Below, piece by piece: positions 51,330-56,337 of a stretch of 64,000 bases of DNA. The stretch comes from Alphaproteobacteria bacterium. GTDB lineage: Bacteria > Pseudomonadota > Alphaproteobacteria > SP197. The stretch spans positions 2,699,753 to 2,763,752 of the forward strand of contig OZ244844.1 in NCBI GenBank assembly GCA_965220805.1, read 5' to 3'. How positions within the stretch are numbered: position 1 is the stretch's first letter; every line of letters begins with the position of its first letter. Below the pieces are notes generated by a model. That model was not told where the DNA came from, searched no databases, and saw nothing but the letters and a program-made list of their open reading frames with translations. The position numbers and the translations under genes were made by a program.

Positions 51330-52730
51330 ATGCTGAGGAACACCAGGTACGACGCCAATGAGCTGTGGCAGAAGGACCATGACCACGTCATTCATCCGTG
51401 GACGGATTTCTCCCAGTGGGACGACAAGGGTTCCGAGATCATGGCCGAGGCTGATGGCATCCATGTCTACGACAGCCACGGCAATCGGTTCATCGACGGT
51501 ATCGGCGGACTGTGGTGCGTCAACATCGGCTATGGCCGCGAGGAGATGGCCGAGGCGATCGCCGAACAGGTCCGCGCCATTCCCTACTACTCGCCATTCC
51601 ACCATCTCTCGACCCCGCCGGCGGGCCTGCTCGGCGCCAAGATTGCTTCCCTGACACCGGGAACTCTCGATCACATGTTCTTCGGCACGGGCGGTTCCAT
51701 GGCCAACGACACGGCCGTTCGCTTTGTTCACTTCTACTGGAACAACCTCGGTCGCCCCAACAAGAAGAAGATTGTCTCCCGGGTCGATGCCTACCATGGC
51801 ATGACCTACATGGCGGCGGCTCTCACCGGCATAGCCTACGACAAGATCGGCTTCGACCAGGCCGACGAGATGGTGGTGCACGTCGCCTGCCCCTACACCT
51901 ACAGGCGCCCGGAGGGCATGACCGAAGCCGAGTTCTGCGACTGGCTGATCGAGGATTTCCGCAAGCGCATCGAGGAGGTCGGCGCCGAGAACATCGGTGC
52001 CTTCATCGCCGAACCCGTCATGGGAGCGGGTGGCGTGATCGTCCCTCCGGAGGGGTATCACAAGCGCATGTTCGAGGTCTGCAAGGCCAACGAGATCCTC
52101 TACATCTCGGATGAGGTGGTGACCGGATTCGGCCGGCTCGGCCACTTCTTTGCCTCGGAGGACGTCTTCGGAATCGTTCCGGACATGATCACGTCAGCCA
52201 AGGGCATCAGCTCGGGCTATCAGCCGCTGTCGGCGACCATCGTGTCCCAGGAGGTCTACGATGTCCTCTCCACGCCACAGGCGGACGGAGCGCTCTTTAC
52301 CACCGGCTTCACCTATTCTGGCCATCCGGTGTGCTGCGCTGCCGGAATGAGGAACATCGAGATCATGGAGCGCGAGGACATTCCGGGCCACGTGCGCAAG
52401 GTCGGTCCCTACTTCGAGAAACGCCTCGCCGAACTCAACGACCTTCCGCTGGTGGGCGAGACCCGCGGCAAGTGCTTCATGCTGGGTGTCGAGAACGTCG
52501 CCAACAAGGAGACGAAGGAACTGCTGCCTGCAGAGGTCAATGTCGGAGAGCGCATTGCCGAACATGCCCAGGCGAACGGGGTCATCGTCCGTCCCCTCGG
52601 CCATCTCAATGTCATCTCGCCGCCACTCATCATGACGGAGGCGCAGATCGACGAGTTTGTCGACGTCCTCAGGGGCGCCATCCTGGCGACCCAGGATGAC
52701 CTCGTGCGCGAGGGGCACTGGAAGGGTTGA
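51330..52730 (+). CDS. Class III (omega-amine) aminotransferase
   Basis: DGIGGLWCVNIGYGR, FIAEPVMGAGG, DEVVTGFGR, AKG, FTYSGHP. Confidence 0.93.
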   Translation: MLRNTRYDANELWQKDHDHVIHPWTDFSQWDDKGSEIMAEADGIHVYDSHGNRFIDGIGGLWCVNIGYGREEMAEAIAEQVRAIPYYSPFHHLSTPPAGLLGAKIASLTPGTLDHMFFGTGGSMANDTAVRFVHFYWNNLGRPNKKKIVSRVDAYHGMTYMAAALTGIAYDKIGFDQADEMVVHVACPYTYRRPEGMTEAEFCDWLIEDFRKRIEEVGAENIGAFIAEPVMGAGGVIVPPEGYHKRMFEVCKANEILYISDEVVTGFGRLGHFFASEDVFGIVPDMITSAKGISSGYQPLSATIVSQEVYDVLSTPQADGALFTTGFTYSGHPVCCAAGMRNIEIMEREDIPGHVRKVGPYFEKRLAELNDLPLVGETRGKCFMLGVENVANKETKELLPAEVNVGERIAEHAQANGVIVRPLGHLNVISPPLIMTEAQIDEFVDVLRGAILATQDDLVREGHWKG

Positions 52731-52751
52731 GGTGAAGGCCCGGCGGTTCCT

Positions 52752-53426
52752 TCAGGGATCGCCGGGCACCCCGTAGCTTGGCGTGTTCCCGGGATCGAGC
52801 GCCCGGTTGACGTAGTCGTCCATTTGCGGGCCGAAGACGTCCCACACGCGCCTGAGTTCGGCGATGGGCTCGTCGTGCCAGTCGACCCTGAGATCGCACA
52901 CCGGCCAATCGTGGCGGTGGCAGACCTTGATCCCCACCGAGCGCACCGGGCCCATTTCACCTCCGGCTTCCAGCCCTGCCTCGAGACCGGCGAGCAGGCG
53001 TTCCACGAAGGGGGCGCCGTCGGTGGTCTCGAAGGCACGCACCATGGCGGCGGGAACGCCCGTGTTGGCGAGCAGGTTGCCGGCGGCAATGGCGTCCTTG
53101 CCCTCGGCGACCGCATGGGTTCCCAGGGTGCCCGAGCCCGAGTGATGGGCGGTGTGCCCCAGGGCGTCAATGATGGCGAGCTGGCGGTACTCCGGCCAGG
53201 CCTTCGCCTCGACGAGGATCGTCATGGCGCGTGCCGCGCCGTATCCCCGGGCCAGAAGATCGAGGCCCATGAGGCCCAGGCCCGGATCGGTGATGTTCTG
53301 GCTGGCGACGGCTCCGACATGGCCGCGCACCCAGGCGCAGCGGGCGGCAACGGCCGGACTGGACGAGGTGACCACCACCCCGAACATGCCGGTCTTCCGG
53401 CAGCGGGCGGTCAGGGAAAACGTCAT
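52752..53426 (-). CDS. DUF1028 (Ntn-hydrolase-like) protein, HinH-like
   Basis: MTFSL N-terminus, GAVASQNITDP, AAGNLL, DLRVD, PSYGVPGD. Confidence 0.88.
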   Translation of the reverse strand: MTFSLTARCRKTGMFGVVVTSSSPAVAARCAWVRGHVGAVASQNITDPGLGLMGLDLLARGYGAARAMTILVEAKAWPEYRQLAIIDALGHTAHHSGSGTLGTHAVAEGKDAIAAGNLLANTGVPAAMVRAFETTDGAPFVERLLAGLEAGLEAGGEMGPVRSVGIKVCHRHDWPVCDLRVDWHDEPIAELRRVWDVFGPQMDDYVNRALDPGNTPSYGVPGDP

Positions 53427-53839
53427 GGCCCGTCTTCCGGGATGACCGCGTCGACATCGATTTCCATCAGCATTTCAGGTCTGGCCAGGGCCTGCACGAC
53501 AAGGCCGGTCGACACCGGATAGACGCCCTTGAGCCAGCGCCCGATGACATTGTAGACCGGTTCCCGGTGACGCGGATCCGTCAGGTAGATGGTGATCTTG
53601 CAGATGTGGTCGAGTTGACTGCCGGCCTCCTCGAGCAGGCGCTTGACGCAGGACATCGCCATCTCGGCCTGGGCGGCCGGATCGCCTGTGCCATGGAAAC
53701 TGCCATCGAGATCAAAGCCGGTCTGCCCTCGCATGAAGACGTGGTTGCCGGCTCTCACGACCATGCAAAGGTCGTTGTCGAGCGTCTGCTCCGGGTACAT
53801 GTCCCGGGTGTTGAAGGTTCTGAAACGCTGGTGTGCCAT
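53423..53839 (-). CDS. RidA-superfamily protein, HinL-like
   Basis: H.RFRTFNT...YPEQ.LDNDLC, PVSTGLVV.ALARPE...EID. Confidence 0.88.
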   Translation of the reverse strand: MAHQRFRTFNTRDMYPEQTLDNDLCMVVRAGNHVFMRGQTGFDLDGSFHGTGDPAAQAEMAMSCVKRLLEEAGSQLDHICKITIYLTDPRHREPVYNVIGRWLKGVYPVSTGLVVQALARPEMLMEIDVDAVIPEDGP

Positions 53840-55318: not shown

Positions 55319-55403
55319 CTGTCATGTCCTTCCCTTGCTCAGGCGAGGAGAGAGGTTGACAGGATCACGGGTTCCAGCAAATCATTTTCTGTCGACGCGT
55401 TGC

Positions 55404-55418
55404 ATAGAAAAAATTGAT
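55404..55418. promoter_or_regulatory. Putative LysR T-N11-A box
   Basis: ATAG-N7-TGAT in the AT-rich divergent region, overlapping the LysR TTG start. Confidence 0.45.
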
Positions 55419-56337
55419 ACGCTACACGCTGAAACAGCTGCGCTACTTCACCGCCGCCGCCGAAGCCGGGAGCGTTTCGGGGGGCGCCGAGCGTTGCGCG
55501 GTCTCCCAGCCCTCGGTATCTGCCGCGGTCGCCCACCTCGAGGACGTGCTCGGTGTCCAGCTCTTTGTCAGGCAGCACGCCCGGGGTCTTGCGCTCACGC
55601 CGGCCGGCCGGCGCCTGCATGCGGCGGCCCAGGCCCTTCTCCTCCAGGCAGGCGAACTCACCGAGGAGGCCAGCGGTCTCGCCGGGGGCCTCTCCGGTGA
55701 TCTCGATGTCGGCTGTTTCGTGACGTTCGCTCCCATCGTGCTGCCGGGACTCCTGCGCGTCCTGGCGGCGAGACAACCGCTGATCCGCGTCAGACCCCAC
55801 GAGGACGACCTGCGGGCACTGCAGCACGGCCTCCGGAACGGCCGGTTCGAGGTGGCGCTCACCTACGATCTCAACCTGGAGAAGGACATCGCCTTCGAGC
55901 CCGTGGTCCCGGTGCCGCTCTATGCCGCCTTGCCGGCGGATCACCGATTGGCGTCGTCGGATGCGCTCGATCTTCGCGACCTGGAGGGCGAACCCCTGGT
56001 TCTCCTCGGTCTGCCCGACAGCCGCGGGCACTTTCTTTCGCTCTTTGCCGAATCCGGGTTCGAACCCGACATCGCCTACGAGACGCGGTCCTTCGAGATG
56101 GTGCGGGGCCTCGTCGCCAACGGCTACGGGTATGGGCTTCTCCATACCAGGGCGCCGCATGACCGGACCCTGGACGGCTCCAGTCTTGTCTGCGTGCCGG
56201 TGAGCGAGCCCCGCCGCACGATGCACATGGGCCTGGCAAGACTGAAACACGCCCGGTCCACAGGCATGAGTCGTGCCTTTGGCGATATCTGCCACGCCCA
56301 CCTCGCCGGTCTCCTCGACAACGGGGTGCCGCCGTGA
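55414..56337 (+). CDS. LysR regulator, HinK-like
   Basis: YTLKQLRYF, SQPSVS, VGCF.T.AP, EMVRGLV, RT.DG. Confidence 0.9.
   Translation: MIRYTLKQLRYFTAAAEAGSVSGGAERCAVSQPSVSAAVAHLEDVLGVQLFVRQHARGLALTPAGRRLHAAAQALLLQAGELTEEASGLAGGLSGDLDVGCFVTFAPIVLPGLLRVLAARQPLIRVRPHEDDLRALQHGLRNGRFEVALTYDLNLEKDIAFEPVVPVPLYAALPADHRLASSDALDLRDLEGEPLVLLGLPDSRGHFLSLFAESGFEPDIAYETRSFEMVRGLVANGYGYGLLHTRAPHDRTLDGSSLVCVPVSEPRRTMHMGLARLKHARSTGMSRAFGDICHAHLAGLLDNGVPP

Follow-up and report, generated by a model that had tools for sequence, protein, structure and literature searches.

We report here the analysis of a stretch of 64,000 nucleotides (hereafter, the window) from the genome of an uncultured, sponge-associated alphaproteobacterium (contig OZ244844.1; G000:C1:2699753-2763752 in genome coordinates), in which genes for an HpaB-family oxygenase, a Rid-family protein and a DUF1028 protein follow one another and a gene for a LysR-type regulator diverges from them. 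We put the probability at about 0.5 that this LysR/HpaB-Rid-DUF1028 set is a Hin-type module, which would open the imidazole ring of imidazole-4-acetate or a close analog. Because the LysR, Rid and DUF1028 components are of the Hin type and because related loci carry the Hin-type M20 deacylase and amine-to-acid enzymes, ring opening of the imidazole-4-acetate type appears to be the most likely function, and the module is filed as the known Hin pathway in a variant form with an HpaB-type oxygenase. The analysis establishes the identities of the genes, the orthology of three components to those of the Hin pathway, the conservation of the operon and the co-occurrence of two types of oxygenase. 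The coordinates of the genes are collected in Table 1.

Comparison of the Rid and DUF1028 proteins with the Pseudomonas Hin operon

In Pseudomonas, the hinFLHG genes (PA5393-PA5390) are described in a passage of PMC8231116 as converting imidazole-4-acetate to aspartate. HinF is listed in Table 3 of PMC6467879 as an FAD-monooxygenase (EC 1.14.13.5), HinL as an enamine deaminase and HinH as an amidase, and short passages of PMC6467879 and PMC8231116 give HinG as an amidase (EC 3.5.1.8) or a 'peptidic bond hydrolase'. A search of 400 sampled Gammaproteobacteria detected DUF1028 in 36; one of these (G300) is an unpublished genome, which supports no other claim made here. Twenty of the DUF1028 loci were examined; nine encoded the subtype found in the window (299-376 bits to the profile) and 11 encoded a distant subtype (102-156 bits). 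The neighbours of the window subtype were Rid, M20 deacylase, LysR and oxygenase genes. At L133, L134 and L135, the oxygenase was a flavin-containing monooxygenase (FMO) of ~430 residues (Pyr_redox_3/FMO-like; near TIGR04046, below its cut-off), and at L134 the genes FMO-Rid-DUF1028-M20 were located on one strand. Locus L122 is from Pseudomonas, a cluster-mate being named P. poae. DUF1028 of the window type was then found in 43 of 61 sampled Pseudomonas genomes, and the codirectional order FMO-Rid-DUF1028-M20 was present in 16 of 30 Pseudomonas DUF1028 loci (each 3.6 kb), the operon proteins belonging, by their cluster names, to the P. putida group, P. fluorescens, P. syringae and others. From its order and content, we strongly infer that this Pseudomonas operon is hinFLHG, as far as the latter is described in the passages cited.

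When compared with their counterparts in the Pseudomonas FMO-Rid-DUF1028-M20 loci, the Rid protein of the window showed 58-68% identity (median 66%, n = 19) and its DUF1028 protein 47-52% (median 50%, n = 32). The DUF1028 protein grouped with the Pseudomonas hin-type DUF1028 proteins, apart from the distant type, and its N-terminus, MTFS, was common to it and all nine orthologs inspected. The only solved DUF1028 relative was 2IMH, with a score of 55 bits. The protein is assigned to the HinH type within the Ntn-hydrolase superfamily and is probably a ring or amidine hydrolase. The Rid protein scored 48.3 bits against the model of canonical RidA, TIGR00004, for which the cut-off is 106.25, and, as judged by these comparisons, it is a HinL-type Rid-family protein and not a canonical RidA. 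Thus, the sequence identities and the DUF1028 tree indicate that a HinL-type Rid gene and a HinH-type DUF1028 gene are adjacent in the window, as they are in the Hin pathway. The first-pass annotation had proposed by eye that Rid, DUF1028 and LysR resemble the Hin subfamilies, and the above identities, together with the regulator's best structural match being HinK, bear this out.

When compared with the Hin pathway of P. putida U and P. aeruginosa PAO1, the window shows the same gene order, oxygenase-Rid-DUF1028, and shares a HinK-family LysR and orthologous Rid and DUF1028 proteins, and the M20 deacylase of the same subfamily occurs in 25 of 80 related loci. The main difference is in the oxygenase, which is a single-component FMO in the case of HinF, whereas the enzyme in the window belongs to the reduced-flavin-dependent HpaB family. 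The window also differs in having no M20 deformylase, aldehyde dehydrogenase or reductase and in that its aminotransferase is not of the Pseudomonas type.

LysR regulator and control region

The solved structures closest to the LysR of the window were 3FZV and 6M5F, which were matched over the full length with 242 bits and ~42% identity, and the next structure scored 103 bits. According to a table of PMC11495319, 6M5F is HinK of P. aeruginosa, and HinK is described in a passage of PMC8231116 as a LysR that responds to imidazole-4-acetate. The regulator found here is, by its sequence, of the HinK type known from the Hin pathway, and we assign it to the HinK family, its binding of an effector being a prediction. 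Its identity to the LysRs beside the Pseudomonas hin-type loci was 39% (n = 3). The three HinK-like regulators compared with the HinK structure scored 242, 201 and 226 bits. An attempt to tell HpaB-linked from FMO-linked regulators by their likeness to HinK was abandoned because these scores give no separation. One sigma-70-like site was found in the divergent region, at 55356-55385 (+), with 0.7 expected in shuffled sequences. No operator was identified in 55319-55413, where no further operator-motif search was made, and all seven terminator-like sites found by a terminator scan were inside genes, none being located between the convergent gene ends.

Family, clade and residues of the HpaB-type oxygenase

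The oxygenase belongs to the HpaB family, with HpaB_N matched at residues 4-267 (277 bits) and HpaB at residues 275-474 (180 bits). Its scores were below the equivalog cut-offs for 4-hydroxyphenylacetate (4-HPA) 3-monooxygenases, being 225.4 bits against 480.2 for TIGR02309 and 167 against 885.2 for TIGR02310. It was 70-93% identical over 99-100% of its length to the best 120 database relatives, which carry the source name '4-hydroxyphenylacetate 3-monooxygenase', and is placed by these comparisons in a tight and widespread clade. The closest solved structure was that of Thermus HpaB (172 bits, ~30% identity). In the alignment with it, Arg100, Tyr104 and His142 of the Thermus enzyme correspond to Arg99, Glu103 and Ser145 of the window enzyme, and Ser197 and Thr198 correspond to Thr199 and Ile200. 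The residues R99, E103, H143, S145, T199 and I200 were invariant in 67 of 67 clade members. We take Tyr104 and His142 of Thermus HpaB to be the residues that bind the phenol hydroxyl and the listed Thermus residues to be those for binding of phenol and carboxylate. The Tyr/His pair characteristic of 4-HPA 3-monooxygenases proper was not found in the window enzyme, which has Glu103 and Ser145 there instead, and by sequence the oxygenase is not a phenol hydroxylase.

As for likeness to HpaBC systems (Thermus thermophilus 2YYG; Escherichia coli 6QYH/6EB0; the chloro- and nitrophenol monooxygenases), the window oxygenase has the same two Pfam domains and length; its alignment with the Thermus enzyme spans residues 2-461 and retains the arginine at Arg100, and a PF01613 flavin reductase is encoded beside clade members in 27 of 80 loci. 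The HpaBC systems differ from the clade in their partners, which are the meta-cleavage genes of the hpa pathway, in contrast to Rid, DUF1028 and a HinK-like LysR for the clade. Pyrimidine ring opening by the Rut pathway involves the RutA/RutF monooxygenase-reductase, the RutB amidohydrolase and the RutC Rid-family protein. As an analogy only, the window and its clade would resemble this pathway in the use of a reduced-flavin oxygenase on an N-heterocycle, followed by an amidohydrolase and a Rid-family protein. RutF was the best NCBIfam match of the clade-linked flavin reductase (127 bits, below the cut-off), and RutC was the second NCBIfam match of the window Rid protein (32 bits, below the cut-off). 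The two differ in that RutA is luciferase-like and RutB is isochorismatase-like, whereas the window encodes an HpaB oxygenase and a DUF1028 Ntn-type hydrolase. A literature search on the HpaB clade, imidazoleacetate monooxygenase, histamine with HpaB, and DUF1028 returned nothing relevant within its coverage, which did not extend to subscription papers. NCBIfam holds no specific curated model for DUF1028, the Rid subfamily or the HDAC-like or amidohydrolase neighbours.

Conservation of the operon across related loci

Relatives of the oxygenase were encoded in 268 stretches of species-representative genomes, and we examined the best 80, which came from Alpha-, Gamma- and Betaproteobacteria (Caballeronia, Burkholderia) and Actinobacteria (Streptomyces, Gaiellales). 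In tblastn searches, the window's Rid was found beside the oxygenase relative in 75 of the 80 loci, LysR in 71 and DUF1028 in 68, several of the misses being contig ends. This recurrence indicates that the gene arrangement does not arise by chance. In most of the 80 loci, moreover, the clade gene was located directly before Rid and DUF1028, and this position was common to loci of Alpha-, Gamma- and Betaproteobacteria and Actinobacteria. By clustering of open reading frames (ORFs) and Pfam annotation, the neighbours in the 80 loci included a Rieske oxygenase (28 loci), a PF01613 reductase directly before the oxygenase (27), an M20 deacylase (25), a DAO-type flavoprotein (17) and an HDAC-like amidohydrolase (12). 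The M20 deacylase in those 25 loci was of the same subfamily as the M20 protein of the Pseudomonas operon. Rarer neighbours, counted among 69 non-redundant loci, were PhyH (eight), TMADH-like flavoproteins (three), flavin amine oxidase (three) and arginase-family proteins (three); the TMADH-like flavoproteins have the architecture of the histamine-dehydrogenase type. At L050, in the 1.5-Mb genome of the sponge symbiont Candidatus Persebacter sydneyensis, one strand encodes an ABC transporter, an HDAC-like protein, HpaB, the reductase, Rid, DUF1028, an aldehyde dehydrogenase, LysR and a TMADH-like protein, and no FMO match was found in that genome.

Some loci depart from this pattern. At L064, L070, L071 and L076, LysR and ABC transporter genes come after the HpaB-clade gene, neither Rid nor DUF1028 is encoded within 8 kb, and an FMO ortholog was present elsewhere in all four genomes; the clade gene of L071 is preceded by genes for an S15 peptidase and an alpha/beta hydrolase. 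An arginase-family gene lies directly before DUF1028 at L022:15030-16714 (-), and a formamidase gene directly before FMO at L181:5972-8272 (+); both would fit an alternative formimino-amino acid route via formamide.

Proposed mechanism and the adjoining aminotransferase

For the substrate, the catalysis and the regulation of the module, we infer the following course. The HinK-like LysR would sense the acid substrate and turn on the operon. The HpaB-family enzyme, supplied with reduced flavin by a reductase encoded elsewhere, would use O2 to hydroxylate imidazole-4-acetate, or a 4-substituted imidazole very similar to it, on its electron-rich ring. The HinH-type DUF1028 and HinL-type Rid proteins could then open the imidazolone and remove the imine nitrogen to give N-formimino- and then N-formyl-aspartate, from which a deformylase encoded elsewhere would release aspartate. 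An amine, histamine for example, may be turned into the precursor aldehyde by the adjoining class III aminotransferase.

With respect to this aminotransferase, it scored 721 bits against NCBIfam PRK07036, above the cut-off of 618, and its closest solved relatives were amine, polyamine and putrescine:pyruvate transaminases. Nineteen of the 80 loci had a relative with at least 64% identity in the neighbourhood of the oxygenase; 17 of these loci are in the window's own lineage, and at the other two (L028 and L029), the gene is codirectional with HpaB-Rid-DUF1028-M20-HDAC. Its identity to the aminotransferases beside the hin genes in Pseudomonas was only 33% (n = 4), which does not support equating it with HinC, a parallel that had been drawn earlier. 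In the Hin pathway, the aminotransferase HinC and the aldehyde dehydrogenase HinD lead from histamine to imidazole-4-acetate. It is possible that this enzyme, of the omega-amine:pyruvate type, provides the amine-to-aldehyde entry step.

Among RNA libraries, two sponge metatranscriptome runs, both of the same study, and a single run labelled as coral yielded contigs that matched the locus at 90-99% and covered the aminotransferase, DUF1028, Rid and HpaB genes; one contig of 775 bases spans the Rid-HpaB junction. Some flanks in these runs (MATE, most of LysR and the short-chain dehydrogenase/reductase [SDR]) had no contig. These contigs are compatible with transcription in the host, carry-over of DNA being possible in these libraries.

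Points against the proposed function and alternatives to it

Several points weigh against the proposed ring-opening function, and the first group of them concerns the relation of the oxygenase to HinF. The window's genome encodes a HinF-type FMO at G000:C1:2949136-2950386, ~195 kb from the window, which scored 723 bits against a profile made from three FMO sequences and matches Pfam Pyr_redox_3. A second HinK-like LysR gene follows it directly (to 2951505; L141:11149-13509), the product of which scored 201 bits against 6M5F and was 42% identical to the window LysR. No Rid or DUF1028 gene lies beside this pair, the genome having only one Rid and one DUF1028 of the Hin-like type, and Pfam annotation of the window detected no HinF-type FMO in the window operon. 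In other genomes of the clade, an FMO with at least 59% identity was present in 24 of 50 (full length in 18 and partial in six; paralogs were at most 47% identical), and in 5 of 80 loci it lies inside the HpaB cluster, as in L061 and L082 with the order reductase-HpaB-FMO-Rid-Rieske-DUF1028. In Burkholderia sp. S171, the HpaB locus L077 is accompanied by a complete LysR/M20-DUF1028-Rid-FMO set on another contig (L186). Such co-occurrence argues against a simple interchange of the two enzymes.

In favour of the proposed function, the other 26 of the 50 clade genomes had no FMO ortholog, and in these HpaB must therefore supply Rid and DUF1028 alone. Of four further genomes, G001 and G004 had an FMO, G002 had only a 42% identical paralog and G003 had none. 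Conversely, no HpaB-clade gene was found in any of the 61 Pseudomonas genomes (best match, 35% identity) or in three FMO-type gammaproteobacterial genomes. FMO genes standing alone elsewhere were located beside TMADH-like and ABC transporter genes (L184), beside formamidase (L181) or beside unrelated genes. Also on the supporting side, in a DUF1028 tree (FastTree, 106 rows), the FMO-linked L133, L134 and L135 were nested among HpaB-linked rows, corresponding to at least three changes of oxygenase type. The order Rid-DUF1028-LysR-TMADH-like was also common to L133, which has FMO, and L031, L035 and L050, which have HpaB, and the TMADH-like protein of L133 was 64-70% identical to those of the latter three.

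Some details of these FMO loci may be added. The FMO in the window's genome has an HDAC-like gene 7.7 kb upstream of it and, 5 kb downstream, a gene of the PAD_porph (agmatine-deiminase) type, and a TauD-family dioxygenase at L141:1013-2217 is split into two overlapping ORFs (profile residues 22-151 and 205-265), which may be frameshifted. The FMO of L057 is split over three frames, possibly by an assembly error, and the DUF1028 that follows HpaB-Rid at L077:10431-10742 is a fragment of ~104 residues. The idea that FMO copies are decaying pseudogenes, which would have pointed to redundancy, was rejected, as the apparent TGA/TAG is the gene's own stop codon, near query position 408, beyond which the search had continued the alignment.

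These results divide the earlier suggestion that the HpaB-type enzyme replaces HinF. The replacement in operon position is supported, both by the same place in the gene order and by the exchange between L133 and L031, L035 and L050, whereas the genome as a whole retains a HinF-type FMO. Since the oxygenases are often found together and the genome has two regulators, the notion of HpaB being used instead of HinF fails at the genome level, and the mutual exclusivity of HinF and the HpaB clade, which had been put forward as a check, is contradicted by the 24 of 50 other genomes, the 5 of 80 loci and the window's own genome that have both. The best reading of these sequences is that the HpaB-type enzyme occupies HinF's position in the operon and would work in parallel with the HinF ortholog encoded elsewhere in the genome; the two may be redundant or may have different substrates.

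The second group of points on the opposing side concerns the assignment of the pathway itself. HinF, HinL, HinH and HinG were assigned to Pfam families from the composition of the operon and from brief passages of the publications, and database look-ups of the Pseudomonas DUF1028 and FMO proteins returned generic names only, none of them 'Hin'. The putative substrate of the clade is deduced from neighbouring genes only, and many loci additionally encode Rieske, PhyH, HDAC-like and arginase-family proteins and transporters of the polyamine type, which fit several amine substrates. Furthermore, in the annotated part of the window (43190-63332), Pfam annotation detected neither a flavin reductase nor an M20 deacylase nor an aldehyde dehydrogenase, and the genome's best match to the profile of the clade-linked reductase is weak (98 bits). 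The first-pass annotation had already noted the lack of an HpaC-type reductase, a HinG-type deformylase and an aldehyde dehydrogenase in the window, and we found likewise that the genome-wide matches to PF01613 (three), M20 and aldehyde dehydrogenase (11) are all outside it. The oxygenase thus has no partner flavin reductase beside it, the three PF01613 genes being elsewhere in the genome. With the profile of the clade-linked M20 deacylase, the genome's highest score (451 bits) was obtained at G000:C1:3951768-3952925; this gene adjoins an amidase gene and is near arginine-synthesis genes, and therefore it may encode an ArgE-type enzyme. At L143:6043-7454 (G000:C1:3272043-3273454), the genome's best flavin reductase gene (PF01613, 135 bits) converges on a gene of the N-formylglutamate-amidohydrolase family (PF05013). 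The latter could be the pathway deformylase, or the adjacency could be by chance.

With these points in mind, we consider it possible, at a distinctly lower level of confidence than the proposed function, that the genome has two entry routes, in which the HpaB-type enzyme takes a different, related compound, such as imidazole-acetate with an N-methyl group or some other heterocyclic acid derived from an amine. The products of the two oxygenases would pass to the same Rid and DUF1028 steps, and genomes would keep both enzymes because they widen the substrate range. The co-occurrence described above, in separate genomes, in the window's genome and within one operon, is in line with this, as are the two HinK-like regulators, 42% identical and one for each oxygenase, and the retention of two sets in Burkholderia sp. 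S171. The Rieske (GbcA-like, 162 bits, below the cut-off), PhyH and HDAC-like genes by HpaB suggest methylated or acetylated amines, and none of the 61 Pseudomonas genomes sampled for hinFLHG-type loci carries the clade gene. In contrast, the 58-68% identity of Rid across HpaB-linked and FMO-linked operons suggests a single downstream substrate; about half of the HpaB-clade genomes (26 of 50) have no FMO, the same TMADH-like ortholog (64-70%) pairs with FMO at L133 and with HpaB at L031, L035 and L050, and the three HinK-like regulators are about equally near HinK.

It is unlikely, in our estimation, that the module serves another amine pathway (polyamine, agmatine, guanidino or another N-heterocycle), with an intermediate for Rid and DUF1028 that is not derived from imidazole and with the Hin likeness extending to the families only. 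Such a pathway would account for the PotD-type binding proteins and TOBE ATPases, the HDAC-like (acetylpolyamine-amidohydrolase-type), arginase-family and CN-hydrolase proteins and the flavin amine oxidase at some loci, for the PAD_porph and HDAC-like genes near the genome's FMO and for the resemblance of the window aminotransferase to polyamine and putrescine:pyruvate transaminases. However, Rid, DUF1028, M20 and LysR have their orthologs in the Pseudomonas set that the published passages describe as needed for the use of histamine and imidazole-acetate, and, among solved regulators, HinK is by far the nearest. In addition, the arginase-family, formamidase and formylglutamate-amidohydrolase-type neighbours fit the chemistry of formimino- and formyl-amino acids equally well. 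An ordinary 4-HPA, phenol or tyrosine 3-hydroxylase, as the Pfam domains and database labels would have it, is very improbable in view of the scores below both HpaB equivalog cut-offs (225 vs 480 and 167 vs 885 bits), the 172 bits to Thermus HpaB, the invariant Glu and Ser at the Tyr104 and His142 positions and the steady partnership with Rid and DUF1028, with no ring-cleavage dioxygenase or hpa genes nearby.

Gene layout and host genome

The ORFs and their Pfam domains agree with the layout proposed at first, in which LysR diverges from HpaB-Rid-DUF1028 and the aminotransferase gene converges on them (Table 1). The Rid and DUF1028 genes overlap by 4 bases, and the gap from HpaB to Rid is 30 bases. 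The aminotransferase and DUF1028 genes are convergent with their stops 21 bases apart, and LysR and HpaB are divergent with 95 bases between them.

Table 1. Genes and control region of the HpaB-Rid-DUF1028 locus (positions in the window).
Feature	Position	Strand	Basis
Class III aminotransferase	51330-52730	+	Pfam Aminotran_3 272 bits
DUF1028 protein	52752-53426	-	Pfam DUF1028 212 bits
Rid-family (YjgF/L-PSP) protein	53423-53839	-	Pfam Ribonuc_L-PSP 71.5 bits
HpaB-family oxygenase	53870-55318	-	Pfam HpaB_N 277 bits + HpaB 180 bits
Divergent intergenic region HpaB/LysR, presumed control region	55319-55413	.	95 bases; one sigma-70-like site
LysR-type regulator, TTG start	55414-56337	+	Pfam HTH_1 + LysR_substrate

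The host genome is a single 4.13-Mb contig, assembled from a metagenome, and the stretch was matched in sponge metagenome runs from several studies. Right after LysR, an SDR gene and a cytochrome P450 gene overlap by 4 bases (56346-58546, -). The SDR belongs to the coniferyl-alcohol-dehydrogenase subfamily (271 bits, above the cut-off), and the pair is kept in the closest relatives, L004-L008, L012, L020 and L045. On the other side of the locus are genes for a crotonyl-CoA carboxylase/reductase, a marker of the ethylmalonyl-CoA pathway (43190-44479, -; TIGR01751, 547 bits, above the cut-off), a Fic/DOC-family protein that contains Fic_N and, at its C-terminus, a winged-helix-like region (44980-46350, +) and a protein of 835 residues that combines ankyrin repeats with a peptidoglycan-binding domain and a MORN repeat (46597-49104, -). 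A second Fic gene, in L142, adjoins a fragment of a Type ISP restriction enzyme. Eukaryote-like repeat proteins of the ankyrin and MORN kind have often been reported from sponge symbionts.

Significance

As a tentative extension of the proposed function, which we hold to be possible and no more probable than the two-route alternative, the clade labelled '4-hydroxyphenylacetate 3-monooxygenase' could be a two-component imidazole-ring monooxygenase that is retained beside HinF because each acts on an imidazole of its own, such as free versus N-modified imidazole-acetate, and sponge symbionts might express it in the host to harvest histamine-type amines of the host for carbon and nitrogen. The presence of both oxygenases in one genome or operon poses a testable question, namely, whether they are redundant or have different substrates. 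If the proposed function is true, the HpaB family would gain a new class of substrates, imidazoles rather than phenols, and, because 268 species-representative stretches were matched, hundreds of database entries for 4-hydroxyphenylacetate hydroxylases would need correcting. DUF1028 and this Rid subfamily would also gain a defined biochemical setting. More broadly, the catabolism of histamine and imidazole-acetate would then reach beyond Pseudomonas to Alpha-, Beta- and Gammaproteobacteria, Actinobacteria and sponge symbionts.

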